From: Escherichia coli
Lineage (GTDB): Bacteria; Pseudomonadota; Gammaproteobacteria; Enterobacterales; Enterobacteriaceae
DNA: 64,000 bases
Direction: 5' to 3' (one strand)
Assembly (NCBI RefSeq): GCF_003991155.1
Contig: NZ_CP031293.1
Numbering within the stretch: position 1 is the stretch's first letter; every line of letters begins with the position of its first letter. The notes below the pieces were generated by a model. The model searched no databases and was not told the DNA's origin. It saw only the letters and a list, made by a program, of their open reading frames with translations. Shown in pieces: positions 32,635-63,060 of the stretch. Both the position numbers and the translations under genes were made by a program.

Positions 32635-32736
32635 ATGAAAGAGAATAAAGTACAGCAAATCAGTCATAAACTGATTAATATCGTTGTTTTTGTCGCAATT
32701 GTAGAATACGCCTATTTATTTCTCCATTTCTATTAA
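32635..32736 (+). CDS. ykgR: small hydrophobic protein, YkgR-like (33 aa)
   Basis: ATG preceded by GAGGAA; translates MKENKVQQISHKLINIVVFVAIVEYAYLFLHFY; identity to YkgR is from memory. Confidence 0.45.
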   Translation: MKENKVQQISHKLINIVVFVAIVEYAYLFLHFY

Positions 32737-33072
32737 TAACGGCAATAAACTGTTCACTTCAGTGATATTTAAAATATGCATCCTCTCCCTTTTTTGTAAG
32801 TAATTATTATATCCGTGGGAGAGGAATATACGCTGTCAGGTAATCAATCAAACTGCGATAAATCATCGGCCAGTAAAGTGGAGATAGCCTCCATTCTCGA
32901 AAAATCCATACTCTCAGCGAAACCATCATCAATCACTCATCCAGGCGTTTATGGGAGCGTAGCCAATGGCTGCTAACAATGCCAGACTTCCCCGTTGCGG
33001 AAATTCCACATCCCACAAATAGTCACAGGGATTGGGTGTTGAAATGATCCGGATGAGCATGTATCTTTATGG

Positions 33073-33088
33073 TTATGTTATAACATAA
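33073..33088. promoter_or_regulatory. Zur box (perfect 16-bp palindrome TTATGTTATAACATAA) upstream of ykgM
   Basis: Perfect palindrome about 12 bp upstream of ykgM start; resembles the Zur operator; ykgMO are known Zur targets. Confidence 0.7.
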
Positions 33089-33100
33089 CAGGTAAAAATG

Positions 33101-33364
33101 ATGAAACCCAATATCCATCCTGAGTATCGTACTGTGGTGTTCCACGACACCATTGTTGATGAGTACTTTAAAATCGGCTCGACTATCAAAACAGACCGTG
33201 AGATTGAGCTGGATGGCGTAACGTATCCGTACGTAACAATTGATGTCTCTTCGAAATCGCACCCGTTCTATACAGGGAAGCTGAGAACAGTGGCATCAGA
33301 AGGAAATGTTGCACGGTTCACCCAACGTTTTGGTCGTTTTGTTAGCACGAAAAAGGGGGCATGA
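33101..33364 (+). CDS. ykgM: ribosomal protein L31 paralog (type B, zinc-independent) YkgM
   Basis: 87 aa [17 protein letters not shown]...; L31 family without the zinc-ribbon cysteines. Confidence 0.9.
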
Positions 33365-33504
33365 TGAAAGTCCTTAACTCTCTGCGTACCGCAAAAGAAC
33401 GCCATCCAGACTGTCAGATTGTGAAGCGAAAAGGACGGCTGTATGTGATTTGTAAATCTAATCCACGTTTTAAGGCCGTTCAGGGTCGTAAGAAAAAACG
33501 TTGA
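33364..33504 (+). CDS. ykgO: ribosomal protein L36 paralog YkgO
   Basis: 46 aa [46 protein letters not shown]; start overlaps ykgM stop (ATGATG). Confidence 0.9.
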
Positions 33505-34519
33505 TTTAAAATTCGACGAATTAACGATATTTGTCTGATTAATAATCAGACCGGATTAATGTTGGTGTATTTATTACACCAGCATTAATTTTCCTGGGGA
33601 TGTATCTTCCTGTTCATTTAAGGTCAACTGCCTGACGTTTCTCTCCGAATATTCCATTATATTAATGTTGACTTGTTGACCAGCTTCGCCCTGTATGCTG
33701 GCATCAACTCTATTTTAGACTGAACACGTCACTCAGTTTCCTCCCTTTGCGACGCAGCCTGCATTTACACTCAAACTGTTAAGATGATAAATGTGGTAAA
33801 TCTGTTGGTACTGACATAAAAACGTTTACGCCACAGGAACGGCCAGATCCATCGGTAACCCCATCGCCGACGTTCGAGTGCCAGTTAGAGTAACGCGCAC
33901 AGATGACTGAATGCAGTGCCCTGGCAAAGAGGCCATCGTTCCTGTGACAACTGGCAGTCTTCGTTTAACTTCACTTAATTTGGCTCTTAGGGGGCTTACC
34001 GGACATGATGACGCACTTACACCTGTTTAATTTTTCATCACTTATTGGAGTGAACACCCATAACCATTTTGTGCGGCATGTTAACCCATTAAAACACCTT
34101 ACTGATTGGCAAATCATCTTTAATTATGACTCATGATAGTTTTATATTCTATTTCTTATCATTTAAACTTGTTTTTTTACTAGTCCATTACACAACACAT
34201 TAAGACTATTCCTAACACCTCAGGGCAAAGTTCCTGGCTAATATAAAATGCAAGTAAGAATTGAACGTTATATTGCCAATAACCTTATGAAACTGAATGT
34301 CTTTTTCTTCTTATCAAAAAAGCAATATTTTCATTTTTTGTAAATATTGACTTAACCATGGAATTCATTTTCTGTTCACATATTGACACTCATCAGGAAA
34401 AAAACATAAATTTAAACCTAATCGAAATAATTAAAACTTAATCTCGTTTAACCTATATTGATATGTGCTACGTATCTTATTTACTTCCGATTTACTAAAG
34501 AAACTGAATGTACCTGTAA

Positions 34520-42024: not shown

Positions 42025-42231
42025 ATATGCAATAATTAATTGCACTGCCCCGCCAGCTATAATCGCGGGGCTTCGTTTTTCAGGGATAACAAAACCCGAA
42101 ACTTCTTCCATCTGCCAGCAACAATGCCTCTTCCTCTATAGTGTTCTCCGGATCTACAGCATCCTGAAGTAGCGCGATGTACTCACTGGCTATCTGCCAT
42201 CAGAAAGTTAAAAACAATGTTTTTAACCTAT

Positions 42232-42260
42232 AAAAATGGCGCTGTATTTGCGCCATTTTT
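42232..42260. terminator. bidirectional intrinsic terminator between convergent ykgJ and yagU
   Basis: AAAAATGGCGC-TGTATTT-GCGCCATTTTT: hairpin flanked by A-run and T-run, so it works on both strands. Confidence 0.6.
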
Positions 42261-42273
42261 ATCATTCAATGCA

Positions 42274-43496: not shown

Positions 43497-43557
43497 ACAA
43501 TACACATAGGCGATAAGCTTTGTTTTTGTTGCCTTTTTTATTGTTCATTTTTTATAG

Positions 43558-43580
43558 ATACCCCCAAAAGTACCCCCATA
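43558..43580. repeat. island-terminal 23-mer ATACCCCCAAAAGTACCCCCATA (putative arm-type integrase site)
   Basis: 22 of 23 identical to 62927-62949 at the other island end, same orientation. Confidence 0.5.
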
Positions 43581-43697
43581 TCTTTTTCCGCCCCTGAAAT
43601 TTGGTTGTTATTCATACAGCATATCAGGCGGTAACGCTCTCCCTTTAACCCACTTATTGTATGATAGTGCTATCCCACAATAAGGAATCAGCCAGCC

Positions 43698-44057
43698 ATG
43701 AGAATGACCAGTCGCAAAAAAGAGATACTTAGCTACTTTGAACCGGATAACCTCGAATGGGTGACTGGTGAGATTGGTGCGCCGCCGTTCGATGTGTCGG
43801 GTGTGGCCTACCTGCTTCATGGCATGGTGTCGTTCGATAAGCGTCACCAGCTCGAATCAACCCGGCGAACACTGGAAAGCATGGTTGCTGGTGGACTGCT
43901 TGAGCGGGTGACAGTGTATGAATCGCGCCAGATACGGCGCGGCGGTGATACTAACGCAACGGTCGTGCGCTACGGTTTACCCGGTCAGTGCGCTGTTATG
44001 CGCGATACTGGCGGCGCTGACAACGCAATATCAGGTGAATACATGCGGGTCAGTTAA
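43698..44057 (+). CDS. hypothetical protein (119 aa), first island gene at the attR side
   Basis: ORF with AAGGA SD; upstream inverted repeat CTTATTGT..ACAATAAG; 3' end overlaps the convergent gene by 8 bp. Confidence 0.5.
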   Translation: MRMTSRKKEILSYFEPDNLEWVTGEIGAPPFDVSGVAYLLHGMVSFDKRHQLESTRRTLESMVAGGLLERVTVYESRQIRRGGDTNATVVRYGLPGQCAVMRDTGGADNAISGEYMRVS

Positions 44058-44592
44058 TAGCCTGCAATCTGTCGTTGATGCGGCTCAGGTCGTAAACCCG
44101 GCGTTCAATATCCAGCATCAGGAAATTGTGGATCTCGGCCTGCTCAGGATTATCAGACTCTCTGGCCTGTAATAGCAATTCATTGTAACCATGCAAGCCG
44201 CCTGAGTTTTCCGCCGGGGTGGTGCCTTTCCCACGCAGGCAGCTAATGGGCTGATTACTCGTATCGTGTGTTTGCTTCTCCAGCACAATGACGCAATCCC
44301 ACCAGTCGCCAAAGTCATACGTGTAAACCAGCTTGTCACCCTCATTCTGGAGCGCCGCCCATAGTGGCGTGATTGCCGCGTTACCCATGCTTTCATCCTC
44401 ACCCCATACGCGATACTCGCTACCTGGATCACCTTTACGCCCTTTCTCGAACATATACAGGTGTTCGTCATTCCAGCCAAAAGCTAACTGGATCACGGCA
44501 TGAAGTTTACTAAAGGGGATTTGCTCTGGAACCAGCACACGCCGCCATATAGGTGGTTTGCTGTCTCGGATGGTTATCTTTAGCTGGTACAT
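44050..44592 (-). CDS. pRiA4b ORF-3-like family protein (180 aa)
   Basis: N-terminal motif YQLKITIRDSKPPIWRRVLVP as I recall for the PRiA4_ORF3 domain family; function unknown. Confidence 0.6.
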   Translation of the reverse strand: MYQLKITIRDSKPPIWRRVLVPEQIPFSKLHAVIQLAFGWNDEHLYMFEKGRKGDPGSEYRVWGEDESMGNAAITPLWAALQNEGDKLVYTYDFGDWWDCVIVLEKQTHDTSNQPISCLRGKGTTPAENSGGLHGYNELLLQARESDNPEQAEIHNFLMLDIERRVYDLSRINDRLQAIN

Positions 44593-44712
44593 GCAAATCC
44601 TGAATAAATGCGAATCGGAAGGATAACGATACTGACGTACTCACAATTCTGTAAAGGTGAATAAAGGAAATTTGCTTAATACGCATAAGTTACATGTGGA
44701 ATAATCCCATAT

Positions 44713-44898
44713 CTACCTGCGCGGCGCTGGCTTCTTCCACTGGTAGGCAGGTGCTCGCATCATTTCGCGGAACCTGTCGCGCCGGGCTATATCGGCATTA
44801 ACTGATCGTTCTATCTCCCGTTGATCTGCCTGTGTAAGCTGGTGGCCTCCGTGCTCAAGTTTGGCGATGGTCAATAAGGCTATTTCGCGTGGTGTCAT
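44713..44898 (-). CDS. hypothetical small protein (61 aa)
   Basis: ORF with AGAGGG SD-like sequence; no recognisable domain. Confidence 0.35.
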   Translation of the reverse strand: MTPREIALLTIAKLEHGGHQLTQADQREIERSVNADIARRDRFREMMRAPAYQWKKPAPRR

Positions 44899-45123
44899 AC
44901 GTCATACCCTCTGGAAGGATGAAACACGCCCGGATTAAATTTCATTTTTCGCGGGTATAAAAAAACGATGGGGCGGGCAGTCCCGGATAGTCAGGGCTGT
45001 AGAGATTTGACTACCCCCTCCCCACTGGATTCAGGTTACTGCTATTCCGTTAAGCGCTGCTTACGGGGATAGCTGCGTTGTGATTTTGACCATTCAGGTC
45101 GCCGCTATTTCCTCACCGATTGG

Positions 45124-45156
45124 GTGCTACGCGCGCGCGTACTTGTCCCGAAATAC
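45124..45156. repeat. copy 1 of repeat TGCTACGCGCGCGTACTTGTC..AAATA.CAG (contains palindrome ACGCGCGCGT)
   Basis: Near-identical to 46518-46550; related partial copies at 46755-46770 and 46807-46835. Confidence 0.6.
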
Positions 45157-45195
45157 CAGAAACCGCCAGCCAGAGGATGATTTCCCTCTGGTGGT

Positions 45196-45477
45196 CTACC
45201 TTTGCCTCTTGCCGCCATTTAACCGGAAGGCGTTACCGTTCGGTTGCGCTATCCCCATGCGGTGTTGCGTTTCGGTAACAGCTTTATGCAGGTCGCCAAA
45301 TTCCTCAACCTTCACGGGCGGGCGCTTCACGTTCTCCAGACACGTTTCACGGCGGCGCTTTATCCATTCCCGATCATCGTCCTCGGTGCATAACAGCATG
45401 ACTTCCATCCATCGTGCGGCAGCTCTCCGGTATAGCCCTTTTGACTCCAGCTCTTCAGCTTTCCTGTCCCTTATCAT
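45196..45477 (-). CDS. PerC-family transcriptional activator-like protein (93 aa)
   Basis: N-terminal motif MIRDRKAEELESKGLYRRAAARWMEVM resembles PerC/Pch family as I recall it; GAGG SD and TATAAT -10 upstream. Confidence 0.5.
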   Translation of the reverse strand: MIRDRKAEELESKGLYRRAAARWMEVMLLCTEDDDREWIKRRRETCLENVKRPPVKVEEFGDLHKAVTETQHRMGIAQPNGNAFRLNGGKRQR

Positions 45478-45513
45478 TTCTGCCTCTCAGATTATATAGA
45501 TAAGCAAAAAGGT

Positions 45514-45634
45514 GTTGGTTCAGTTGGTTCAGTTGGTTCAATTTGTAAAGATCGTTGTTTTTATTGTGTTTTTTCTGAAATGTTGAACCAACATCAACTC
45601 ATTTTGAACCAACACAGCCCAGCTCTGAACCAAC
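45514..45634. repeat. iteron module A: 3 tandem GTTGGTTCA, AT-rich spacer, 3 copies of the complementary TGAACCAAC
   Basis: Copies at 45514-22, 45523-31, 45532-40 and complementary copies at 45584-92, 45605-13, 45626-34. Confidence 0.7.
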
Positions 45635-45736
45635 AACACAGCGATAGCTTTGTGATTGGTCCGTTATTTTCTGGCTGATATTTGAGCGTATAACAGTGTT
45701 ATACAGTGGTATACTGTATGGATATTACTCACTGAT

Positions 45737-46192
45737 ATGGTCTTTGCAATGAGCAAATCTAATCTGATCGCGTTCCGCATCCCATCTGAATTGCAGGATG
45801 AGTTTAATCGGTCTGTTCTCGCTTCTGGAGGGGATAAAACCTCCTGGCTTGTTGATGCGATTCGCATGAAGCTGGGACAGCCGGAAAAGTCTATTGATTC
45901 ACGAATGCTTGGGCTGGTGGAGCGCATGGAAAAAGCCGCTGCGTCGCTTATTGCCGGAAAGCCGAACATCCCACCAAAGCCATATAACGAAACGGCAGTT
46001 ATAAAGATCATTGCCGATACCATCCAACAGGGATTTGATAATGGGCGTGTGATAGCTGAACGGATCAATGAAGCAGGCTATCAAACAAAAGCTGGTAAAG
46101 CGTGGGATAAAGATATTTACAGCGCGTGGAAGCGTCAGGGAAGCAATGCTGAAAAGTTAAAAGCGGTGATTGATTGTAAGGTCAGCGTATAA
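45737..46192 (+). CDS. putative ribbon-helix-helix (CopG/Arc-like) DNA-binding protein with extended C-terminus (151 aa)
   Basis: N-terminal IAFRIPSELQDEFNRSV...KTSWLVDAIRMKL resembles an RHH beta-strand plus helix; start may be the Met at 45749. Confidence 0.45.
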   Translation: MVFAMSKSNLIAFRIPSELQDEFNRSVLASGGDKTSWLVDAIRMKLGQPEKSIDSRMLGLVERMEKAAASLIAGKPNIPPKPYNETAVIKIIADTIQQGFDNGRVIAERINEAGYQTKAGKAWDKDIYSAWKRQGSNAEKLKAVIDCKVSV

Positions 46193-46271
46193 ACATGAGT
46201 GCCCATTGGAAAGCTGCTTGGGCCAATACCTTTATACACCAGCAGGTGGTGACGATAGGTGAGGATTAGGC

Positions 46272-46493
46272 ATGAAAGGCAGAACGCCACACATTGAACA
46301 TCAAGCCAACCACTTCTCGGATGTTCGCAATGAGATGATTGCCATTCGCGGTGATATGCACGGCTTGGAGCGTCGAATTATTGATAAGATTGATGAAAAT
46401 AGAGATAAGGCCAGTGAAAATCAAAAGTGGATCATCGGCCTGTTGATTTTATCAATTCTTATCCCGCTACTTATCGCATTGGTCACAAAATGA
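46272..46493 (+). CDS. small tail-anchored membrane protein (73 aa)
   Basis: GAGGA SD; charged coiled-coil-like N-terminus and single C-terminal TM helix (WIIGLLILSILIPLLIALV). Confidence 0.5.
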   Translation: MKGRTPHIEHQANHFSDVRNEMIAIRGDMHGLERRIIDKIDENRDKASENQKWIIGLLILSILIPLLIALVTK

Positions 46494-46517
46494 ATATCCA
46501 ATGTGTATGCTGTCGAT

Positions 46518-46550
46518 GCTACGCGCGCGTACTTGTCGCAAAATATCAGG
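46518..46550. repeat. copy 2 of the ACGCGCGCGT-ACTTGTC repeat
   Basis: TGCTACGCGCGCGTACTTGTCGCAAAATATCAG, near-identical to copy 1. Confidence 0.6.
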
Positions 46551-46754
46551 CAAAGGCCAGATTCAGAAATTCGTGATAACCACCAGCACAACATGAGAGG
46601 TCATGTAACGCGATTTATCACACCAGATACATGTGATTGGTGTACCCGCATAAAACATCGTCATAGCGCGTCCTGTGCGCATATACGCCGATAATCAACA
46701 CATCACCACCACTCTGTCTCATGTAGAGAACAGTTTTATGGTACTCCCCTCCAT

Positions 46755-46835
46755 CGTGCGCGTACTGGTCGGACGTAGTTGCAAAATTTTTTGCAACTGA
46801 TACCCCTCGCGCGCGTACTGGTCACGAAATTGGTG
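46755..46835. repeat. copies 3 and 4 (partial) of the GCGCGCGTACTGGTC repeat flanking palindrome GTTGCAAAATTTTTTGCAAC
   Basis: CGTGCGCGTACTGGTC at 46755-46770; CGCGCGCGTACTGGTCACGAAATTGGTG at 46807-46835; 20-bp perfect palindrome at 46777-46796. Confidence 0.5.
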
Positions 46836-47036
46836 TTTTGCTGTGGCAGTGATATCAGAAAAATCTTCCTGTTTCACATAAAGCGGATATGCGCGTAATG
46901 TAACGGCCCCATCAACTGGGAGCGGATTTGAGCCCGAATGTGTAGGCAATGTCACTTAACGTTTGTCGCATACCTTCCAGAAAAAGCGATTCATGAATAA
47001 TAGGGGCATGAATGCCCGGCGTACCGGGCTTATTAG

Positions 47037-47735
47037 TTAATTTGGTGCTTTAGGGTCAACATTAAAAGTTATATCACCTTCTGTATTTTTCCCGGCATAG
47101 CTAGCGGCTATTCTCGCCAACCCTTTGTAATCAGCAATTCCATCAGACTGTTGCGAGACGACTGAGCTACCAACTTTCCATAACATATTAATCTGCCGAT
47201 TATTGAGATAAGCCTTGGCATCAAACGACTGGAGTATCACCCCTGCGCCGTAGAACGTGTCCGTCACAGTTGTGTTATACGCGCCAGTAATTCCATAAGT
47301 AGGCGTATAAACTGTTGTTGCCGTTCCAGTGGTATTAGCTGTACCGTAGCCACCACCATAACTATTGAACGTGGTGTTCGAGTTTCCGTACGTTGTTGCT
47401 GAGCTCACACCAGTTTGCCCGTATATTGGGATGGTTACATTACGAGTATTTGAAATGGCCCCGCTTCTCAAAAAGTTCAAGAGAATTACCTGGTCAGCCA
47501 ATTTTTCATCTTTAACTTGTGTATATCCTTGGCTTGATAAACTGGCGGCTACTACCGTAGCTATTTGAGTGTATTCAATCTGTTTGGTGTTCCAAAGTTC
47601 TTGGCTTGCGGGGATGATCAAGAACTTCTTACCGACAGATTGCCCGGAAGATAAAGCATTGACCGTTACTAACGGTTTTTGTACGCATCCAGCCAATAAT
47701 GACAGGGATAATATTAAAAGAAGATTTTTAATCAT
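47037..47735 (-). CDS. lipoprotein (232 aa) with Gly/Thr/Tyr-rich central region
   Basis: Lipobox LLAGC in signal peptide MIKNLLLILSLSLLAGCVQ; low-complexity middle; tandem hairpins downstream of the stop. Confidence 0.7.
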   Translation of the reverse strand: MIKNLLLILSLSLLAGCVQKPLVTVNALSSGQSVGKKFLIIPASQELWNTKQIEYTQIATVVAASLSSQGYTQVKDEKLADQVILLNFLRSGAISNTRNVTIPIYGQTGVSSATTYGNSNTTFNSYGGGYGTANTTGTATTVYTPTYGITGAYNTTVTDTFYGAGVILQSFDAKAYLNNRQINMLWKVGSSVVSQQSDGIADYKGLARIAASYAGKNTEGDITFNVDPKAPN

Positions 47736-47885
47736 GATAATCTCACCTAAGAATTGCGTGGTTATAAATTATCATCACTGTAAGCGAATGTAAGCCACAG
47801 GCTCGTAATGTGATATGGAATTTTGATAGTTGGCTCAATATCAGTATGCCGTCCTTGGCTATTATGGTTTTGTTAGTTAGAGCGT

Positions 47886-50612
47886 CTATTCCCATTCGCT
47901 AACATCTTTCATGCCACTGAGGGTAGCTACAATCCCGGCCCTTGTCAGTTTCACGAATTCTTCAGCCCCAACGGCATCACGAATTGCTTTCATGGCAATT
48001 TTATTGGCCGAAAATCGTTTCTCTGCTGCGGCGATCGCTGCTGGTGATGCCCCTGCGCGCACTGCTTTTGTAGCTTCCTGAACGGCTTTCTCTATCGCAT
48101 ATCGACCACTTCTTGTCGCCCCAATCTTAGCCACAGCATTTCTTAGCGCGCCACCAGCAACCAAACCACTAATCGAACCAATTACACCACCGCCAAAGCC
48201 TCCAGCGATCGCACCTGACTGTTGAACTCCGTTCATAATCACGCCGACGATCTTTGGAAGGCCTGAATCGAGCGTTTTGAGAGCCTCAGTTGTTCTTCCC
48301 GTGCGCTCTACGTATCGCTGCGGTCTGGTACTGGCTTTAGCGAGTACACCGAACTCTTTCATCATTCTACCGAGATCTGGCGCATGACGACTGATGGCGT
48401 TTACATTCTGCTGGGTCATGAGCTTGGCAAAATACTGGATACCTGACTCTTCACCGATTCCTCCCTTCTCTCCCTGCGCCACAGCATGCTGAAGAATAGA
48501 TGCTATTGCAGGTTGGCGTTCTGCTTCCGGCAGCGCGGAGATAAGACGGTGAAAAGCTCCCGTTCCAGTGTTTGCGGATGCCTTAAGCGTATCGGCACCT
48601 TTTCTTACCATAGCGTCTGATGCGAGATCTCGACCAAAAACAGATTCGGCATTTTGTTTGGCGATAATGTAACTTTTAGAGAGATCGTTAGCTTTCTGCC
48701 ATTCTGTGAGGAAGTTTCCTTTTTCAGCCATGATGCGCATGTCATCAGTGATAGCTCTGCGCATTTCTCCGGCAATCCGGGCGGCATTGGCCTTACCTGC
48801 CCGGGTGTTTGCTTGTTCAGCATCAGCAAACTTAGCACGCCATGCCTTCATCCCGTCGAAGGTTATGCCGCCACCTTGGTTGTTGGCAGCCTGAAACTGT
48901 TTCATCTCCGGGCTGAGTGGAACATTGGCTGCTTTTTCTGCTTGGACGACAGCCATCCCATTACTCATTTTCATCCTTTCGCGTGGCATCGTGCTTCGCA
49001 GTTCTGCCCATGCCATATTCTCTGCTGTTTTCATATCACTGAGGCTCGCGATGATGCGCTCTTTAATTGCTGCGCTTTTTTCTGATGCGCTTCCAGACTC
49101 AGCACCGAAATCAGACAACTGCTTATTCAACTTTGAGGATATTTCATTGAAGGCCGTAAGGTGAGCATCCTGAACATTCCCAGGAGTTGATGCCAGAACA
49201 CCTTCTGCTTGGGCAATTCCACGACTACCTGAGCGCATTCCAGGCGTCAGGGTGTTGATATTAATACCAGTGATTTTCGCCGCCTTAGCGACATCATCTC
49301 TGACGTTTGATGCCTGCGATGCGATATGCTCTCGGCCTACGGCAGAACGCGCTGCTTTCGATACATCATTGGCGGTTTCCAGAGTATTTGCTGCCCCTAA
49401 CACATGGCCTGATTGATTTGTATTACTCCGCAATACATCTCGCATTACGTCACTGGCTGTCTGTCCGCTCTTTATTAAAGCGCGTGCTCCTAGCGATCCT
49501 GCTAGGCCAATACCTGTCTCTTTTGCTAGGTCTTCTGGGCTGATCTGCCCGTTCTTTTGGGCGTTCACCAATGTACCTGGCAGGTTTTCTGCCAACATAC
49601 TAGCCACCTTTGTGGCCGCACGTTCAGCACGTGGAGCGTTGGCAACTGAAGAAGCTGCGGTAGCTGCCTTTCCTGCACCTAATCCTGTAATAAGGTAAGG
49701 TGCTAGCTGCTCACCAGCCTGCGCGTATGGATCTGTAGGTTGGTCTACTGGGCGAAAGACAGGTGATATGGGCGTGTATGTGCCATCACCCACACCAAGC
49801 TTCTGAGCTGCCCATGCTCCGGCTGATTGCGCCGCATTGACTACCCCCACGCCTGCGTCCATTACATCAAACGGTATATTAGCAATCCCTCTGGCCATCT
49901 GCTCTGGCGCAGCTTTCAGTCCTGGCGAAAGATATTCCATCTCAGGATTAAGGTTAGACTTGGCTACTTGCTGCTGCGGTTCCCCGGCATTTTCATCGGC
50001 GAGAAACTGAGCTCTTTTCTGCTCCCATGAACTGGCTGTTGGTAGTCCTGCTTCTATGTTCTTAAATTGCTGACGTTTTGCTTCCCATGCAGAAATATCT
50101 CCCACCTGAGAGATTTCTTTATCAAGCTCTGAGTAGTCAGGCTGCTGAAGATTGCGATGTTGACTGGTTTGTGCAAACTGCAAGATTTCACTGTCATCAG
50201 GGATTATTCCGGCATCTGCAAATTTACTTACGTAATTAGCCGTTTCATCTGGCAGTGTAGATTTACCGTTTCTGACGGCATTAATACGAGCATAGCCAGA
50301 ATTATACCCAGCCAATGCCATACCTATATCACCAAATCGCTTCATTCCTTTATTGAGATGGTTTGCTGCGATATCCATTTGCTTTTCAAATGGCAGTGAG
50401 CGCGGATCTGTTCCACGATAACCAGCATCACTCATTACTGAGGGCATCAGTTGAGCAAATCCTCTAGCTCCTTTCGGTGACTCGGCACTTCCGTTACCAC
50501 TAGATTCATTGCCAACTAATGTTTCCATCGTCCCTGATGGGAAACCATATTTTTCATCGAGATGACGGGAATAGGCTTTCTGTTTTTCTGTCAGTTGTGC
50601 CATCATTGCCAT
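47886..50612 (-). CDS. large protein (908 aa) with N-terminal lytic transglycosylase (SLT) domain and long alpha-helical Ala/Lys-rich body
   Basis: SLT motifs near N-terminus (GNESSGN...ESPKGARGFAQLMP...ALAGYNSGYARI); start overlaps upstream gene stop. Confidence 0.8.
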   Translation of the reverse strand: MAMMAQLTEKQKAYSRHLDEKYGFPSGTMETLVGNESSGNGSAESPKGARGFAQLMPSVMSDAGYRGTDPRSLPFEKQMDIAANHLNKGMKRFGDIGMALAGYNSGYARINAVRNGKSTLPDETANYVSKFADAGIIPDDSEILQFAQTSQHRNLQQPDYSELDKEISQVGDISAWEAKRQQFKNIEAGLPTASSWEQKRAQFLADENAGEPQQQVAKSNLNPEMEYLSPGLKAAPEQMARGIANIPFDVMDAGVGVVNAAQSAGAWAAQKLGVGDGTYTPISPVFRPVDQPTDPYAQAGEQLAPYLITGLGAGKAATAASSVANAPRAERAATKVASMLAENLPGTLVNAQKNGQISPEDLAKETGIGLAGSLGARALIKSGQTASDVMRDVLRSNTNQSGHVLGAANTLETANDVSKAARSAVGREHIASQASNVRDDVAKAAKITGININTLTPGMRSGSRGIAQAEGVLASTPGNVQDAHLTAFNEISSKLNKQLSDFGAESGSASEKSAAIKERIIASLSDMKTAENMAWAELRSTMPRERMKMSNGMAVVQAEKAANVPLSPEMKQFQAANNQGGGITFDGMKAWRAKFADAEQANTRAGKANAARIAGEMRRAITDDMRIMAEKGNFLTEWQKANDLSKSYIIAKQNAESVFGRDLASDAMVRKGADTLKASANTGTGAFHRLISALPEAERQPAIASILQHAVAQGEKGGIGEESGIQYFAKLMTQQNVNAISRHAPDLGRMMKEFGVLAKASTRPQRYVERTGRTTEALKTLDSGLPKIVGVIMNGVQQSGAIAGGFGGGVIGSISGLVAGGALRNAVAKIGATRSGRYAIEKAVQEATKAVRAGASPAAIAAAEKRFSANKIAMKAIRDAVGAEEFVKLTRAGIVATLSGMKDVSEWE

Positions 50613-51922
50613 CCCTTAAGTTTTGCCTGATAGTAACTTTCCGGCAGATAGCCATGTGCGGTCACATAATCCTTAACCAGTGAAGGATCCTGCAACAGCA
50701 TTTTGGTATCAGTTTCTTCGTCCTTAGATTTGGTTACAGGAATACCGAGCCCGGCAATCTGTCGTTTCTGCATTCGAATAATTACGTCCTGCGCTTTATT
50801 CAACTCTCGCAAAAATGCCTCATTGCTGGTTGCTGACTTAATGCCATTTTGAGATTGCATAAGGGCAGCCCTTTCCCCTTCGGTTGGGTTAGAGCCAAAA
50901 GTCCCTTTGAGGCTAGGCAGAATAACCTTTAGGTTGTATTCATCAGCTTTGGCGCGTAGGCTTCGTGTGTCTTCTGCTACATCAGGAAGGAATCCAAACC
51001 CCAGCGTCAGGGGGTTATAGTTCTGCGAGCGGGTAACGGCCGAAGGATGTTTCCCTACAATTCCCGCCAGTTCATGACCCACTTCAAGCGCAGAGTTCAA
51101 GGAGTCGATGTTACCTACAACAGTATTAATTTTATCGTTCATCTTCTCCACTTTCGCCTGCTGTACCTTGCTCAGTTCAGCATTGAGCTTGTCTCTCTCG
51201 ATGTCATTTTGAGCACGTCCAAGTCGTGCTTTCAGAACCATTTCTCTCGTGCGTAGTTGGTTATCGGATAGGACTTTGAACTGCTCCATATCGAGACGTC
51301 GATTACCCTGTTCCGCATTAACCTGAGCATTATATGCGGATGTATCTGCGTTCTGCTGTGCAATGCTCTGCCCTTGCTGCTTCTCTTGAACACTAAAGTA
51401 ACTATTTGGATCAGCATGGAGGTGGATGAGGTCAGTGATTCTGTTGAATTCCTGTGGGTCATTCTGCCAAGACTGATAAACCTCTTCAGCAGGAAGACCA
51501 AATCGCTGTAATACTGGATTTGCCTGCTGAATGGCCTTCTGCATGGTCAGTGGATCTCCAGTTTGTGACGCAAGACGCAGATTCATGGCAGCGTCAGCGG
51601 TCTGTCGATTTTGCTCAGCATCAATGAATCCCATCTGTTTTTGAGAATCAGCCATAAACTGGGGATACTGGGCCATTAACTTCTGCACGCCAACACGATC
51701 ATTATTAGCTACCGCACTACCCAACCGTGCCTGATATTCTTTTAACTGCTGGGAAATTTGCGCCTGCTGATTAATCTCAGCAACGCCTCTTAGCCCCTGT
51801 AGCGCCATTAAACCTACGTTTGGCTGCTGCTGATACTGCACAGGCTGAGGAACGGAAGAACGAGGAGCATTATCATTTTGCGGTGCCATGCTAGGCAGCC
51901 CGCCAAGTTGCCATGTCGCCAT
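50603..51922 (-). CDS. Gln-rich coiled-coil protein (439 aa), co-transcribed with the SLT protein
   Basis: Long ORF, translationally coupled on both sides; Q/A/N-rich helical composition. Confidence 0.7.
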   Translation of the reverse strand: MATWQLGGLPSMAPQNDNAPRSSVPQPVQYQQQPNVGLMALQGLRGVAEINQQAQISQQLKEYQARLGSAVANNDRVGVQKLMAQYPQFMADSQKQMGFIDAEQNRQTADAAMNLRLASQTGDPLTMQKAIQQANPVLQRFGLPAEEVYQSWQNDPQEFNRITDLIHLHADPNSYFSVQEKQQGQSIAQQNADTSAYNAQVNAEQGNRRLDMEQFKVLSDNQLRTREMVLKARLGRAQNDIERDKLNAELSKVQQAKVEKMNDKINTVVGNIDSLNSALEVGHELAGIVGKHPSAVTRSQNYNPLTLGFGFLPDVAEDTRSLRAKADEYNLKVILPSLKGTFGSNPTEGERAALMQSQNGIKSATSNEAFLRELNKAQDVIIRMQKRQIAGLGIPVTKSKDEETDTKMLLQDPSLVKDYVTAHGYLPESYYQAKLKGWQ

Positions 51923-52599
51923 TAGAATCCAAGCCCCCCAACAAGACCAATAAGCCCACCACCAATAGCGCCGGCCGCAGTTCCTATTCCAGGAACAACG
52001 GAACCAAGTTGCGCACCCGCTAAAGCGCCTGATGCTGCCCCACCAATACCACGCGCAAGACTGGATGGCTGCTGCGCCTGACCTGCACGAATAGCGCCAA
52101 GCCCCTGCAAGAGTTGTCCGGTATTATTGGCGTAGTTTTGCCCTGCCGTTGCCTGCCCTGATGCCGCATTCATCCCGACATTTAGCAGGTTTCCATAATT
52201 TTGCATTTGCCCACTAAGCCAATTGTTATAAAGCATGGGCGCAATGGAAGATAACTGGTTACTGGTAGCTGTTGAGCCAAGCCCCCCGGTAGCTTCTGCT
52301 GAGACAAGGTTCTGATAACGGGCCTGATCTGCCTGTGTTTTATATAAACCAGAACCAAAGAAATCATTCGCGGCTTTATTCTGCCCTTCCAGAGTCATCA
52401 GTCCTTGCAGTTGTTGTAAAGCAGGCAATCCGACTTCTGCATACGGCTTGAGATTATTCATCACCGTATTCCACTGCTCGCGCTGCAAATCAATTGCCTG
52501 CTGCTGGGCCTTCGCCTGAGCTTTAGAGGCACCACCATCACCGCCTTTTTCGTATACGGCACGATTGAGATGTTTATGAGCTATATGGGTAATTAACAT
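51922..52599 (-). CDS. Gly-rich protein (225 aa) with C-terminal Gly/Ala hydrophobic tail
   Basis: C-terminus GIGGAASGALAGAQLGSVVPGIGTAAGAIGGGLIGLVGGLGF; coupled to neighbours. Confidence 0.65.
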   Translation of the reverse strand: MLITHIAHKHLNRAVYEKGGDGGASKAQAKAQQQAIDLQREQWNTVMNNLKPYAEVGLPALQQLQGLMTLEGQNKAANDFFGSGLYKTQADQARYQNLVSAEATGGLGSTATSNQLSSIAPMLYNNWLSGQMQNYGNLLNVGMNAASGQATAGQNYANNTGQLLQGLGAIRAGQAQQPSSLARGIGGAASGALAGAQLGSVVPGIGTAAGAIGGGLIGLVGGLGF

Positions 52600-53054
52600 T
52601 CGCTGAATTCCTTATATTGTTGCCGAGTTAACTGATAAAGCGTTACGCCGACGGGTTTACCACATCTGATATAAGCATCATCAAGGTGACCAACACGGGT
52701 AGCGCCAAGCAAACGGATAATTGCCCGTCCATATTTTGTGGTGTCAGGAACCATAGTGATGCTGTTAAGGAATGGTGAGTTTTCGAGAAGCCATTTGCAG
52801 AATAATCGATGCCCTTGCAGTGCATATTCACCACGGAATCCGGGGTCGTACACCGCATGGCATTCAACAACGCTATGCCAGAAGTTACGCACTTCATGAA
52901 CGCCAGCCAGCACTAATCCTTCGTAGATGCCGAGATATACCGCATCAGGCTTGATGTAGTACGTGTGCCCCGGCTCAACAATATTTTCGGTATTGCCTGG
53001 CTCGTTAAGAAAGGCCTGTAATCGCACAGGGTTATCAATAAATTTTAGTTCCAT
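52593..53054 (-). CDS. hypothetical protein (153 aa), first large gene of the SLT operon
   Basis: ORF overlapping the downstream gene start; no recognised motif. Confidence 0.6.
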   Translation of the reverse strand: MELKFIDNPVRLQAFLNEPGNTENIVEPGHTYYIKPDAVYLGIYEGLVLAGVHEVRNFWHSVVECHAVYDPGFRGEYALQGHRLFCKWLLENSPFLNSITMVPDTTKYGRAIIRLLGATRVGHLDDAYIRCGKPVGVTLYQLTRQQYKEFSEC

Positions 53055-53070
53055 GCGATGCCATCCATTT

Positions 53071-53232
53071 TCACATACAGCCTGCCAGCGCCTTATCTAT
53101 TAACCCTCGTGCAATTTCATGCAGAGTTGGCGCTACTCCAATTCCTGATTTTTTACGCTGCTCTTCCTGAATTTTCTTTATCGCTTCCATTTGCTTCTCA
53201 CTTATCAATACCGGCTTTACTGAAATAGCCAT
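53071..53232 (-). CDS. small putative DNA-binding protein (53 aa, possibly ribbon-helix-helix)
   Basis: ORF 53071-53361; start placed at MAISVKPVL with GGGGG SD 4-5 nt upstream; LexA-like box just upstream. Confidence 0.45.
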   Translation of the reverse strand: MAISVKPVLISEKQMEAIKKIQEEQRKKSGIGVAPTLHEIARGLIDKALAGCM

Positions 53233-53248
53233 AACGCCCCCCTTAGAA

Positions 53249-53264
53249 CTGTATAAAACAACAG
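53249..53264. promoter_or_regulatory. candidate LexA (SOS) box CTGTATAAAACAACAG
   Basis: CTGT-N8-ACAG with AT-rich centre; about 17 bp upstream of the 53-aa gene start; nearby TATAAT-like hexamer on the minus strand. Confidence 0.5.
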
Positions 53265-53681
53265 TTATTATAGTTTCACAAATCGCAATATTCATCATCG
53301 TAATTGCAAAATATGAAACAAATAGCACAAAAAAATGCCACCGCTCAGTAGCTGGTGGCATCGTTCTGTGTGTCAGGTTTTGACAGGTTTTTTATGGACT
53401 CTAAAAACTATATTTATGGTATCGCATTACTCTTCACGGCAGGTGCTTTTCAGTTCTGCCCTTGCTTCTGGCTCCATTGGTAATTTGATTCGCGATCAGC
53501 TATGCGGATGGTTTGCTGAACAGGCATAACAACTTCTCAGAGGCTGTTTTTTGAACTACGAAAATTTCGTAGTGCTCACTTTCAAAAACGTCACGCCCTT
53601 GTACACAGGATTTTACGAAAGTCTCGTAAAACACTCTCTGATGCCAGCCAGGTGTTGTGCGCATCAATTCAGTCACATTGT

Positions 53682-53792
53682 GTCGGTTCAAAATACCGTG
53701 TTGTTGGTTCAGTGTTGGTTCAATAAAAAGAATAAAATCCTTATAAAACAATACACTTTACAAATTGAACCAACTGAACCAACTGAACCAAC
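53682..53792. repeat. iteron module B: inverted, diverged copy of module A
   Basis: GTCGGTTCA 53682-90, GTTGGTTCA 53704-12 and 53714-22, then tandem TGAACCAAC at 53766-74, 53775-83, 53784-92; spacer begins with reverse complement of the module A spacer (ATTTGTAAAG). Confidence 0.7.
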
Positions 53793-53817
53793 ACCTTTTC
53801 TACGCACATGAAGAAGC

Positions 53818-56577
53818 TCATTCTTCAGATGAGTTATAATCTCCTGGCTGGTAATTGAGTACATAAACGTTTATTTGTCGTCCCTGAATACGTGGTGATT
53901 TTCTTTGGTATCCACGACCGCTGTTTGGTGGGGTTAGCATCCCGGCTTTTTTCAACACTTCAGCAAACTGTTTTGCGTTGAAACCACATGCGATCTCCTT
54001 TTCAAATGTGGCCGGGAATGTGTAGAAAATCATTGGGCTTTCGTCATGTTCTCCACGCTGACGGTATCCGGCTAAATCTTTGATGGGCAAATCTGCCGGG
54101 CTGTATGGAAATGGTGCAAAACGGCTAAGCCCATAGGCATTAAGAAATGCCTCCGTTTGTTCAATAATCTGCTGATGCTCTTTGTTACCTGTGCCGAACT
54201 CGCGCAACCATGCGTTATAGCTGTGCTGTATCGCATCACGGCATGTCTGAGCATCCCAGCCTGTTACAACCTCGCCTAACAACAATGCGGCCTCCAGAAT
54301 GGCAAATCGCGCGGCTACACGGTGAACCTGCTCACCATAATCGGATGGGATCAGGCTTCTCCATCTGCTTTCGCAATCACGAACGGTTTTAATAGCCTGT
54401 TGCTGGTGGTGTGCCAGCCATTTAATCCACTCACGCCCGGACGCGCCGTGGTGATGCTGGTAAGCGTCTTTCAGTGCGTCTGCGTGCTGTTTTCCGTTCT
54501 GGTAATCGTGAAAGCGTACTGCTTTACTCAACGGAATATTCAGCAGTCGCACCAGTTGCCCGGCTTTGGTTTTTCGCCCGGAAGTAGCGATAAATGTTTC
54601 TAAATCCATTTCTCCGGTGCTGATTGCCACTGTACGCCAGCGTTTTAGATCCCGGTTTCCACCATCTTTAGCGCCTTGCAGTTTCCCTACACCGTTAAAT
54701 AACGCATAGGCAGACTGTGAAACGCTGACAGGATCAGCGCCCTGACCAACTTCATCAAGCGGCATTAGTCCGTCATTGTGGGCGGCGGCCTCATTTGCCA
54801 GCCCCAGCGCGGTTCCGTACCACGTCAGCCGCAGTAAATCAGGGTTGCCGTATAAGCTGCTCGCCACGTTTGCCGTGGTGGTCTTACCTGCGCTCGACTG
54901 CTCATAGAAATGAATGCCGAACCCGTCAGCGCCCACCAGCCCAATCAATGGCGCTGCCAGTGCTGCGCCGATCCCGGTCATCATTGAATAGTTACCAAAG
55001 GCCAGACGCGCCACGTTATCACGCCAGCTTTTCGCGCTCCCTGAGACGGTATATCCGGCTGCGGCTGAGCTTCTCCCGCTGAACAGCACAGGATTTTCAG
55101 GTGTTCCGATGATTTCCCCATCAGGCATGATGTACGCTCCGCATTGCCAGCCAGTGGCATGAGCAACACGCCACAATTCACGAGAGCCACTGCGTTGTAG
55201 CCAGTCTGCCAGTATTGCTCTGAGGCTGCTTTTGGTCGTGACATTTACCCCACCAGCTTTAAGTGTGCGCCATCCTTCACGTTCACCAATATCAGCCAGT
55301 GGAATGGCAGCGGTTGTCGGCGTTTCAGAACCAAACGACAGCCAGCGAAGAATGAGATACTGGTCTTTATCGTCTCTGCCAGTACCGATAACGCTTAACG
55401 GAGAACATAACCAGCTTTCGTTATTGATGATTTCTCCACTCTGGCTGTCAGCTCTCGGAGATACCCAATAAATACCATCCTCGCGGCTTTCTATTCTTGG
55501 TTTCAGTGGGTCGGTATCCATAACCTTAAAATCGCTTCCCTCAATGGTCTGTGGCTCCTGTTTCACGCCATTACCCTGTGGTTGGTACATTGACTTATTG
55601 AACGCTTCTGTGGCGCATTTAATGCCGTGTTTTTGGTGGTAATCATTCCAGTCTGCTTTGTGATCTGTCGGGGGTAATGCCACCCATCCAGAAACAGATA
55701 AAGCTGCTTTTTCTGCTGCTATTCTCCCCGTGTTTTGTCTTCCTTCGCTGTGGTCGTTATCCGCAGCAATGATGATTTGTGCTGAAGGAAATTTATCCCG
55801 CAGTACCTGGGCGACATATAACAGGTTCCCGGCATCAATCGCCGCCACTGTCAGCGCCTCTGGACGAATTAAATGGGCAGATAATGCCGTTGCCAGACCT
55901 TCTGCGATTAAGATGCTCTGTGTTGTTTCTGGTGCGTTTATGGCGTGATATGCCCCCCGCTTTGCTGAACCTGTCAGGAGTCTTTTTTCACCATGTGAGG
56001 TAATAGTCTGTGCTGCTGTGACTGCGCCGGATTTATCCACCAGCGCCAGCAACAGAGATCCATCGGGCAACACGGGGAATGTAAAATCACCTACCCCTTT
56101 CGCAACCAGATAATCAGATTTGCCGTTTACAGCCTTTCTGCGCATGTCATCAAACTGACGGGAAAACGTATCCCGTCTTTGTTGTTCGTCCTTCTCTGCC
56201 CTTTTCAGGCGCTCCTGTTCGCGTCGCTGGCGCTCGGTTTCCAGTTGTTCCCGTTTCTGGCTGGTGGCTTCTGGTGTTTCCGTTGTCCGGTAATCAATAC
56301 CCAGAACATCAGCGGCAAGAAGCGCCGCCTCTGTTGTGTCGCAGTTATTTACGCGTTTAATTAAATCCAGCCCATCACCAGCGCCGCACTGATTACAGAT
56401 GAAGCTACCGCGCCCGTTGTCATCGAACCGGAATCGATCTTTGCCCCCACATGCAGGGCAGGGAGCATGACGGCGCGGAGAGTCAGGGACATTTATGTTC
56501 AGGCAGCCCAGCACATGAGGCCAGTTGTTTTCAGACGCACTGATAACCTGACGGATAAGATCAATGTTTCGCATCAC
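53818..56577 (-). CDS. primase-helicase (P4 alpha-like): N-terminal zinc-ribbon primase plus C-terminal P-loop helicase/NTPase
   Basis: 919 aa; zinc ribbon CPACGGKDRFRFDD...CNQCGAGDG; Walker A YEQSSAGKTTT. Confidence 0.85.
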   Translation of the reverse strand: MMRNIDLIRQVISASENNWPHVLGCLNINVPDSPRRHAPCPACGGKDRFRFDDNGRGSFICNQCGAGDGLDLIKRVNNCDTTEAALLAADVLGIDYRTTETPEATSQKREQLETERQRREQERLKRAEKDEQQRRDTFSRQFDDMRRKAVNGKSDYLVAKGVGDFTFPVLPDGSLLLALVDKSGAVTAAQTITSHGEKRLLTGSAKRGAYHAINAPETTQSILIAEGLATALSAHLIRPEALTVAAIDAGNLLYVAQVLRDKFPSAQIIIAADNDHSEGRQNTGRIAAEKAALSVSGWVALPPTDHKADWNDYHQKHGIKCATEAFNKSMYQPQGNGVKQEPQTIEGSDFKVMDTDPLKPRIESREDGIYWVSPRADSQSGEIINNESWLCSPLSVIGTGRDDKDQYLILRWLSFGSETPTTAAIPLADIGEREGWRTLKAGGVNVTTKSSLRAILADWLQRSGSRELWRVAHATGWQCGAYIMPDGEIIGTPENPVLFSGRSSAAAGYTVSGSAKSWRDNVARLAFGNYSMMTGIGAALAAPLIGLVGADGFGIHFYEQSSAGKTTTANVASSLYGNPDLLRLTWYGTALGLANEAAAHNDGLMPLDEVGQGADPVSVSQSAYALFNGVGKLQGAKDGGNRDLKRWRTVAISTGEMDLETFIATSGRKTKAGQLVRLLNIPLSKAVRFHDYQNGKQHADALKDAYQHHHGASGREWIKWLAHHQQQAIKTVRDCESRWRSLIPSDYGEQVHRVAARFAILEAALLLGEVVTGWDAQTCRDAIQHSYNAWLREFGTGNKEHQQIIEQTEAFLNAYGLSRFAPFPYSPADLPIKDLAGYRQRGEHDESPMIFYTFPATFEKEIACGFNAKQFAEVLKKAGMLTPPNSGRGYQRKSPRIQGRQINVYVLNYQPGDYNSSEE

Positions 56578-56932
56578 CGTACCCCACGTGGTCTATAGCG
56601 TTTGCGATATGGCTAACCAGCATCTGCCACTTGGTTATTCCGTAATCAGTCAGCATGCCATCATTGTTTAGCCACATATCAAATTCAGCGGTTGTCGCAA
56701 GTTTCCACTTATCGCCGTGGACAGTCCTCATTGCTGGGTACATGAATGCGCAAATCAGATCACAAACATCTGACGGCTTCAGAGATGTAGTAATGGTGCG
56801 TCCCTCTGGCGTCTGAATTGCCATTTTCTCTTCACCAGTAGAATGAAGGTTATGAATCCACACAGCACCAGCAATCTTTGCCACCTGCTCTCCGATTGCG
56901 GAGCTAAGCGCCATTTCTGCATTTTCACGCAT
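56561..56932 (-). CDS. hypothetical protein (123 aa), overlaps primase start
   Basis: ORF in coupled chain; 3' end overlaps primase start by 17 nt. Confidence 0.55.
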   Translation of the reverse strand: MRENAEMALSSAIGEQVAKIAGAVWIHNLHSTGEEKMAIQTPEGRTITTSLKPSDVCDLICAFMYPAMRTVHGDKWKLATTAEFDMWLNNDGMLTDYGITKWQMLVSHIANAIDHVGYGDAKH

Positions 56933-57266
56933 GAGAACCTCCCGCTACAGTTGCGCCCATGTCATTAACCATGCTTTGCCATATCTCACGCCCGACGTCA
57001 GTCAATCCGTCCTTAGTGACGCAACGTTCAAGAAGCTCGATCCCCACGGTTTCCCACTGCGGGTAGAACACTTTCATGGCTGCCAGTGTGTAGCTATCGA
57101 TCAGGCTGCGAACGCCTTTTACTCCATTGACGATTTCCACACGGACGGCCTCGCCGTCCGCATCAACCATGAAATAGTCCCCGCCGCTGGTGGAGGTAAT
57201 GTGGTTATACAGTGCCGACGCATACTTATTTGCCAGCGCATTCAGTCGGAAATTTTTAGTAATCAT
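56925..57266 (-). CDS. hypothetical protein (113 aa)
   Basis: ORF in coupled chain; 8-nt overlap with downstream gene. Confidence 0.55.
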   Translation of the reverse strand: MITKNFRLNALANKYASALYNHITSTSGGDYFMVDADGEAVRVEIVNGVKGVRSLIDSYTLAAMKVFYPQWETVGIELLERCVTKDGLTDVGREIWQSMVNDMGATVAGGSHA

Positions 57267-57276
57267 GGCTCCATCC

Positions 57277-57879
57277 TCAGTGCGTCACTGGTTCCGCTGG
57301 CATGCCGTTTTCATTCAGTTCAGCTATAAAGCTGTTGTGAAGTTCAGCAAGCGTTTCACGCCCAAATGGAGTCAGTGCTCCTTGTTCCACATCCATCATG
57401 GCTCTGTAGAAAATAATGGCGCGTTCTGTGCCAGACTCGATGCCAAAACGTTCTATCATCGCGCCCTCAATGTTGTTTGCCATAGCGAGGCGCTCTGCTA
57501 CTGGATACAGCGGCATGGCGACGATGCCGTTGGAATAAACAGCCACTTCGGAAGGATTGCCAGTATCATCAATGATGCTGACAGTGCCGTTTTCCTCTCT
57601 CATTTCCAGCATGAATACTGTTGCGATCAGCCATCTCCACATAATGACGTTATGCTGTGATGTGTAATCGAAATATCCCTGGTTACCGCCATCGGCAATA
57701 GCGAGATGTATTGACATACCTTCATCTGGTTTATCGTCATAATCCCCGGCATCCAGACGATTTACGGCATCAATATATGAGATGGCCTCAACGCGTTCTG
57801 TCATGCCATCGTTGCTGCGGTACATGATGTTTACGCCGTCAGGCGTTGCTTCTGCATGGAAAGTTAAGAAATTATTCAT
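57277..57879 (-). CDS. hypothetical protein (200 aa)
   Basis: ORF 57277-57984; start placed at MNNFLTFHAEA where ATG overlaps upstream stop (CATGAATAA). Confidence 0.55.
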   Translation of the reverse strand: MNNFLTFHAEATPDGVNIMYRSNDGMTERVEAISYIDAVNRLDAGDYDDKPDEGMSIHLAIADGGNQGYFDYTSQHNVIMWRWLIATVFMLEMREENGTVSIIDDTGNPSEVAVYSNGIVAMPLYPVAERLAMANNIEGAMIERFGIESGTERAIIFYRAMMDVEQGALTPFGRETLAELHNSFIAELNENGMPAEPVTH

Positions 57880-58093
57880 GTTTCGCCTCGCCTGAATGAT
57901 TCTGTAACTCATATTTGCCCAACAATTCGTCCGCTTCCTGAATAGCTTCTGGTACGCCATTGAGCAGTGACATAACCGCGCCAATCATTAACTTGTCTCT
58001 GTTGCTGGGGCTGGCCCCTTCAAGCCAGAACCCTAAAACAGTCTGAACCTGTTCGATGCGACATTGCGCTTCAATGAGCTGGATGTTGGTCAT
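57872..58093 (-). CDS. hypothetical small protein (73 aa)
   Basis: Start overlaps upstream stop (ATGA). Confidence 0.5.
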   Translation of the reverse strand: MTNIQLIEAQCRIEQVQTVLGFWLEGASPSNRDKLMIGAVMSLLNGVPEAIQEADELLGKYELQNHSGEAKHE

Positions 58094-58353
58094 TTCGCAC
58101 TCTCCACATCGATTAAACCGATATCTATCAGGGAGGTAACTTTTTGTAGCCAGCTATTGATTACTGTCGCCTGTTCCCCTCCCACCGAGGGAACAATCTC
58201 ATTCATCACATGAACCAGACCTGTGCGCGCTCTGGTAAGCCGTTCAGTCGCGCAATCTGCGGGAGTGAATGTGTCTGGATATGGCTCTTCACGCCCCAGC
58301 AATGATTCAATTTCCAGCTCACACGGATGACGATAAATTAAGTTGATATTCAT
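58090..58353 (-). CDS. hypothetical small protein (87 aa)
   Basis: Start overlaps upstream stop (ATGA). Confidence 0.5.
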   Translation of the reverse strand: MNINLIYRHPCELEIESLLGREEPYPDTFTPADCATERLTRARTGLVHVMNEIVPSVGGEQATVINSWLQKVTSLIDIGLIDVESAK

Positions 58354-60606: not shown

Positions 60607-60618
60607 TTTCAGTCTCCG

Positions 60619-62895: not shown

Positions 62896-62926
62896 TTGGG
62901 GGTACCTCCACTAAACCGAACAGCAA

Positions 62927-62949
62927 ATACCCCCATAAGTACCCCCATC
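62927..62949. repeat. island-terminal 23-mer ATACCCCCATAAGTACCCCCATC (putative arm-type site), partner of 43558-43580
   Basis: 22 of 23 identity with the distal copy, same orientation. Confidence 0.5.
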
Positions 62950-62967
62950 TGACCGTAGATTTTGAGG

Positions 62968-63043: not shown

Positions 63044-63060
63044 TTGGGGAGATGTTTGAA

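Follow-up and report, generated by a model that had tools for sequence, protein, structure and literature searches.

The palindrome ahead of ykgM and ykgO in an Escherichia coli strain is the known Zur operator, intact

Replacement of a zinc-ribbon ribosomal protein by a zinc-free paralogue, which is repressed by the regulator Zur and takes over under zinc starvation, is a logic that Escherichia coli shares with the C-/C+ switching under Zur in Gram-positive bacteria (B. subtilis YtiA, S. coelicolor, mycobacteria), although the operator sequences of the Gram-positive systems differ from the E. coli-type box (PMC2706843, PMC9825181). The closest described system is the ykgM operator of E. coli K-12, termed L31p. 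According to Gilston et al. (2014, PMC4219657), two Zur dimers bind this operator cooperatively, the affinity is the tightest of the four operators known (Kd-app 0.025e-18 M2), repression in vivo is 560-fold and the footprint covers ~30 bp; of the other operators, that of znuA/znuC has been crystallised in complex with a pair of Zur dimers. A ykgM-lacZ fusion on the chromosome, otherwise silent, is induced ~1000-fold by TPEN or by zur::kan (Aseev et al. 2020, PMC7297116). The ykgM product, L31B, is incorporated into ribosomes in place of L31 (literature summarised in PMC9825181) and also represses translation of rpmE via its N-terminus, with K2, H6 and E8 as the residues involved (PMC9825181). 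In Yersinia pestis, the Zur box of the ykgM-rpmJ2 locus was placed over the -10 region by footprinting and primer extension (PMC2706843).

Here we describe the corresponding locus in an E. coli strain, represented by a 64-kb stretch of DNA (the window, in what follows). Several complete E. coli chromosomes contain this region with 100% identity, the genes being annotated there as ykgR, ykgM, ykgO, ecpR and ecpA. It shares with the K-12 ykgM locus the neighbourhood of ykgR upstream and ecpR-ecpA downstream; the window carries genes for a flavin oxidoreductase, a hydrolase and a LysR protein where K-12 has ykgP, eaeH and IS3. The stretch 33036-33105, which takes in the -35 hexamer as well as the start codon, is identical to K-12 MG1655. 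Differences from the K-12 system are confined to the strain background, including one substitution in YkgM (S18I). The following features are referred to below.

33039..33044, plus strand: predicted sigma-70 -35 hexamer TTGAAA of the ykgMO promoter (promoter scan)
33062..33067, plus strand: predicted -10 hexamer TATCTT, 17-nt spacer from the -35 hexamer (promoter scan)
33071..33090, no strand: 20-bp structure-based Zur box GGTTATGTTATAACATAACA, best match in the window (motif from PMC4219657)
33072..33089, no strand: core operator for two Zur dimers, 18-bp perfect palindrome GTTATGTTATAACATAAC, containing the 16-mer 33073-33088 (skeleton match, conservation)
33090..33092, plus strand: Shine-Dalgarno-like AGG directly adjoining the operator, with 8 nt between it and the ykgM ATG (putative, from reading the sequence)
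33101..33364, plus strand: ykgM, type B (zinc-free) ribosomal protein L31, 87 aa (NCBIfam NF002462; Pfam PF01197)
33364..33504, plus strand: ykgO, type B ribosomal protein L36, 46 aa (NCBIfam NF002021)
33533..33551, plus strand: smaller hairpin ahead of the terminator (RNA fold)
33554..33594, plus strand: probable operon terminator, a 16-bp stem-loop followed by UUUU (RNA fold, putative function)

That a pair of zinc-independent L31 and L36 paralogues lies downstream, as claimed in the earlier note, is borne out by curated protein families, since both products exceed the NCBIfam type B cut-offs and both are annotated accordingly: YkgM scores 120.4 bits against NF002462 (type B L31, curated cut-off 86) and YkgO 91 bits against NF002021 (type B L36, curated cut-off 70). 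YkgM at the same time remains below the type A equivalog cut-offs, with 58.5 bits for NF000612 and 52.6 bits for NF001809 (vs 70). Not a single cysteine occurs among its 87 residues and both CxxC zinc-binding pairs are absent, as against the four to five Cys found in each of the Cys-containing L31 proteins of the comparison set. In zinc-binding L36 (RpmJ), three Cys and one His serve as ligands; YkgO contains only Cys17 and Cys30 plus one His at position 14, an incomplete zinc-ribbon ligand set. YkgO is identical to the K-12 protein, and YkgM differs from it by S18I alone (codon 18, 33152-33154), the affected residue being one that aligns with a zinc-binding cysteine of ordinary L31 (RpmE). 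An E. coli ribosome with both zinc-free paralogues is available as PDB 6i7v (for L31B with the K-12 protein); YkgM matches its chain D7 in 67 of 68 residues over the modelled part, and all 45 residues of its chain C5 agree with YkgO. The residues K2, H6 and E8 are all retained in the YkgM of the window. We place the start of ykgM at 33101 rather than at 33098, because orthologues begin with MKPNIHP and because one E. coli strain has ATA at 33098-33100. The ATG of ykgO overlaps the stop codon of ykgM (TGATG), which makes coupled translation of the two genes likely, and the span singled out in the earlier note closes exactly on the ykgO stop at 33504.

The promoter-like site TTGAAA-17 nt-TATCTT (predicted hexamers, 9 of 12 positions matching) is the sole one in 32700-33800. 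At the -35 position, Salmonella has TTGAAA, Klebsiella TTGATC and a second E. coli ykgM copy (described below) TTGAAT; the -10 counterparts are, in the same order, TATTTT, TACTTT and TACCTT, while the spacers have diverged. Because 4 nt separate the 18-bp palindrome from the end of the predicted -10 hexamer at 33067, transcription would be expected to start inside the operator, at about 33073-33075; in the literature on ykgM regulation we found no mapped transcription start for E. coli ykgM. Given this predicted geometry, a footprint of ~30 bp would span from the edge of the -10 hexamer to the ribosome-binding site. Eleven bases separate the 18-bp palindrome from the ykgM ATG at 33101, the AGG at 33090-33092 among them. 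Downstream of ykgO, where both hairpins are strong, the RNA of 33505-33610 folds at -32.6 kcal/mol (z = -5.3; none of 200 shuffles was as good); a simple terminator scan after ykgO gave no match, having overlooked the terminator because of its short U-run. On the opposite strand, a frameshifted remnant of ykgL is annotated in this part of the window.

In the earlier note the site was described as a Zur box, and the motif scan agrees, as both published definitions of such a box find their best match of the whole window here. The structure-based motif for two dimers in E. coli, TGWNAYRWTATAWYRTNWCA (taken from PMC4219657), agrees with 33071-33090 at 17 of 18 specified positions (one mismatch). 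The two-dimer skeleton RNNNYRNNRYNNYRNNNY, which consists of four purine-N-N-N-pyrimidine (RNNNY) elements, one per Zur monomer, fits 33072-33089 with 0/8 mismatches; it does so only in the register of the palindrome, neighbouring registers giving one to eight mismatches. The central TATA, which is contacted by Tyr45 and said to set Zur boxes apart from Fur boxes (PMC4219657), is present at 33079-33082 and sits on the dyad of the 20-bp box, between 33080 and 33081. To the older 23-bp gammaproteobacterial consensus GAAATGTTATANTATAACATTTC (Panina et al. 2003, as quoted in PMC2706843) the fit is only 16 of 22 positions, with the outer GAAA/TTTC arms missing, and even so it is the best in the window; this consensus is a cross-genus description and not a requirement, and the site agrees with the E. 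coli-specific definition. In 1.01 Mb of unrelated control DNA (120 listed loci) no site with at most one mismatch to TGWNAYRWTATAWYRTNWCA occurs, which bounds the chance expectation of such a Zur box to <0.19 per 64 kb. The next-best Zur-like 20-mer of the window, TGTACAGATATAACGTATCA at 5431-5450, has two mismatches, one of them in the skeleton, and lies just beyond the betT terminator hairpin, ~800 bp upstream of pdeL; since about 0.25 sites with two mismatches are expected per 64 kb, we regard this candidate for a second Zur site as probably due to chance. The sequence of the L31p duplex used in gel shifts is not printed in the accessible text of PMC4219657; as the identical K-12 promoter contains one sole Zur-like site, the duplex should correspond to 33071-33090.

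A perfect palindrome of 16 bp had been reported for the site, and this stands as far as it goes: the 16-mer TTATGTTATAACATAA has a single occurrence in the window (33073-33088, 12 nt before the ykgM start) and is perfectly symmetric. The full perfect palindrome, however, is longer, as G33072 pairs with C33089, giving the 18 bp of GTTATGTTATAACATAAC bounded by the non-pairing bases G33071 and A33090. Perfect symmetry about the dyad falls to 16 bp in Salmonella and Klebsiella and to 0-12 bp in more distant genera, and at the K-12 znuC, zinT and pliG operators it covers only 4-6 bp. Since the perfect part of orthologous sites spans no more than 0-16 bp in other genera, perfect palindromy is neither a conserved nor a diagnostic feature of the site. 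The znuC, zinT and pliG operators of K-12 agree with the 20-bp motif with 0-1 mismatches and with the RNNNY skeleton with none, each having 15 of 20 bases in common with the site in the window; they differ from it in symmetric pairs (9/10 with 18 bp perfect at ykgM, 6-7/10 with 4-6 bp at the other E. coli Zur operators) and in position, the ykgM box being nearer to the start codon (-30 vs -45 to -52). One could speculate that selection for the tightest possible Zur site has driven the E. coli ykgM operator to near-complete dyad symmetry, in which case the ribosomal paralogues would be the last genes released as zinc falls, as opposed to the symmetry being an accident of descent. We consider such selection unlikely: the pattern in the data fits selection and shared ancestry alike, and the idea is weakened by zinT, which binds nearly as tightly with a much less symmetric site.

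The association of the box with zinc-free L31 can be followed across Gammaproteobacteria in a sample that was drawn blind to the operator. For this sample 100,044 species genomes were scanned with the back-translated peptide MKPNIHP[D/E]Y, a query independent of the upstream DNA, which yielded at least 120 loci; 115 of the listed loci were usable, that is, had a full-length gene and enough upstream sequence, with few Enterobacterales among the matches listed. With a box defined by at most three mismatches within 150 nt upstream, boxes were found ahead of 33 of the 36 gamma-type Cys-free L31 genes among the matches listed, from Vibrio, Pseudoalteromonas, Pseudomonas, Providencia, Erwinia and others. 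Likewise among the matches listed, the box was found at none of the 51 Cys-containing L31 genes, and the E. coli-type box at none of the 28 other (non-gamma) Cys-free ones (background 0.004 boxes per upstream region; Fisher p = 1e-25 for 33/36 vs 0/79). Zur-type boxes are therefore associated with Cys-free L31 genes across Gammaproteobacteria. All except one of these 33 boxes start 31-56 nt before the ATG, that of the window at 30, and in these other Gammaproteobacteria an L36B gene is often adjacent (again among the matches listed). Additional genera were compared by means of chromosomal records in a plasmid collection: the exact 16-mer is present amid diverged flanks in Salmonella enterica at -31 and in Klebsiella aerogenes at -33, and related boxes are found in Aeromonas and, 31-56 nt ahead of the L31B start, in Acinetobacter. 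The 23-bp consensus of other Gammaproteobacteria fits the E. coli site, as given above, only in part.

Of 5061 matching E. coli records, 2985 show no difference from the window over 33036-33103. Six sampled promoter variants differ at 33065, at 33069-33071 and at 33094-33100 (an A-run and an extra ATG); in this small sample the 18-bp palindrome is invariant in all six, and the polymorphism stops at its edges. The zur gene lies outside the 64-kb window; among 5426 complete E. coli genomes, 5425 carry it. The promoter/operator stretch of ykgM is absent from 369 of these 5426 genomes and zur from one, so the operon of ribosomal paralogues is dispensable in ~7% of strains. A second ykgM copy is found in the E. 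coli record pB39_V (NZ_OQ420472.1, 1385-1764), beside ureG; it encodes a protein 90.8% identical, has a GTG start and is not followed by ykgO. Upstream of it, hexamers homologous to the -35 and -10 of ykgM are present, an unrelated sequence replaces the Zur box after the -10, and a weaker Zur-like 20-mer (three mismatches) lies upstream of the -35; this copy may represent an L31B that has escaped from normal Zur control. Copies of rpmE, the gene for zinc-binding L31, are annotated on Citrobacter plasmids of 87-116 kb in the plasmid collection (for example, NZ_CP132285.1 and NZ_CP059428.1) and on Citrobacter/Enterobacter records of 386-607 kb, an odd place for a core ribosomal gene; by tblastn the RpmE query was confirmed to be the annotated product of E. 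coli rpmE.

Taken together, the palindrome is almost certainly the operator at which the zinc-uptake regulator Zur controls the ykgMO promoter. When zinc is sufficient, two Zn-loaded Zur dimers would occupy the 18-20 bp site (33071-33090) cooperatively, one on either face of the DNA; every monomer would read one purine-N-N-N-pyrimidine element, with TATA 33079-33082 at the centre. The resulting complex of ~30 bp would extend from the 3' edge of the predicted -10 over the transcription start and across the ribosome-binding site, so that RNA polymerase would be excluded and ykgMO kept silent. When zinc becomes scarce, Zur without zinc would leave the DNA and ykgM and ykgO would be cotranscribed, probably with coupled translation, whereupon Cys-free L31B and L36B would take the places of zinc-binding L31 and L36 in the ribosomes and L31B would additionally repress rpmE translation. 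The strain from which the window derives would be expected to behave like K-12, for which Zur binding, repression and zinc response are published (PMC4219657; PMC7297116), and to this extent the remark in the earlier note that the biology is known was justified. Induction by TPEN, the check proposed there, is likewise already in the literature for the identical K-12 promoter sequence.

Could the symmetry simply be a chance product of an AT-rich promoter region, without regulatory role? Of the Markov-1 runs simulating the window, 70% contained one or more perfect palindromes that were 16 bp or longer and 27% one or more that were 18 bp or longer; in the window itself another one of 20 bp, TTTCCCCAAATTTGGGGAAA, lies at 60328-60347 inside a phage-related island, and a search for the 16-mer with up to three mismatches in the window gave no enrichment over shuffles. 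As chance alone gives perfect palindromes of at least 16 bp in most simulated 64-kb windows, palindromy was dropped as a criterion: the symmetry of the site by itself is within chance, and it is the Zur-box base content that gives significance. This content, however, makes the site the best Zur-box match in the window, without equal in ~1 Mb of control DNA, the 16-mer is kept exactly in Salmonella and Klebsiella amid diverged flanks, similar boxes occur at 33 of 36 orthologous loci among the matches listed, and binding and repression are published for the identical K-12 sequence (PMC4219657; PMC7297116), so that an accidental palindrome has a negligible probability and is effectively already refuted. 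No greater credit is due to the suggestion that another member of the Fur family, such as the iron sensor Fur, reads the site and that it is some metal besides zinc to which the operon answers. Zur is homologous to Fur and Fur-family boxes are all AT-rich inverted repeats (PMC4219657), yet the six best matches listed for the 19-bp Fur consensus (3-5 mismatches) all lie away from the ykgM locus, the central TATA said to distinguish Zur from Fur recognition is present, and deletion of zur alone leads to full derepression in K-12 (PMC4219657; PMC7297116). The best Fur match in the window is ATTAATGATAATCACTATC at 4319-4337 on the minus strand, with three mismatches and inside the pdeL coding region.

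An operator for Zur also has to be weighed against a palindrome acting as RNA, that is, as a hairpin in the ykgM leader, for example in an autoregulation by L31B like that at rpmE. The palindrome abuts the ribosome-binding site, and autoregulation through leader hairpins is frequent for ribosomal proteins, with L31 and L31B acting in this way at rpmE (PMC9825181, PMC7297116); L31 supplied in trans, however, had no effect on ykgM-lacZ (PMC7297116). Folding of 33066-33112 gives -7.3 kcal/mol with z = -1.0, 29 of 200 shuffles being as good, and an RNA beginning at the expected start 33074 is shortened to -2.3 kcal/mol (z = +0.15). Most orthologues have poor symmetry (0-12 bp) and the outer bases conserved in other genera follow the protein-contact pattern RNNNY, not stem pairing; no Rfam family matches at the ykgM operator locus, and we hold an RNA role to be very improbable. 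Somewhat more room, although still little, must be left for a strain in which the operator is intact and the ribosome switch impaired, for example by S18I in YkgM or by a defect elsewhere such as in zur. The S18I allele is rare (34 of 5063 records identical over 33120-33187), zur lies outside the window, and the absence of the ykgM promoter stretch from ~7% of complete E. coli genomes indicates a dispensable system. Against impairment, residue 18 is outside the residues 2-8 needed for rpmE repression (PMC9825181) and K2, H6 and E8 are kept. Position 18 is moreover variable among Cys-free L31 orthologues (A, S, G, T or N among the matches listed), both reading frames are intact, YkgO equals that of K-12 and zur is nearly universal.

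Elsewhere in the window, the phage-related island mentioned above extends over 19.6 kb (43497-63062) and adjoins tRNA-Thr(CGU) (63061-63136, minus strand). It contains genes for an integrase, a TOPRIM/DUF927 primase, an antirepressor, a DNA-ejection protein and a lytic transglycosylase, together with Rfam matches to C4 antisense RNA (58996-59083) and isrK (59146-59223); it is absent from the otherwise identical NZ_CP029747.1 and present in full length in 51 of 5426 E. coli genomes. An Rfam match to IS009 RNA (42067-42268, minus strand, 191.7 bits) lies between yagU and ykgJ.

The site is the known ykgMO Zur operator in an intact state, and the biology it serves is already known. No open question becomes newly testable by this finding; its value is one of confirmation, in that the Zur operator which is best characterised and tightest is found intact in this strain, accompanied by the genes for both zinc-free paralogues. 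With the operator and both paralogue genes intact, the zinc-starvation ribosome switch of K-12, including the repression of rpmE by L31B, would be expected to operate in this strain as well.
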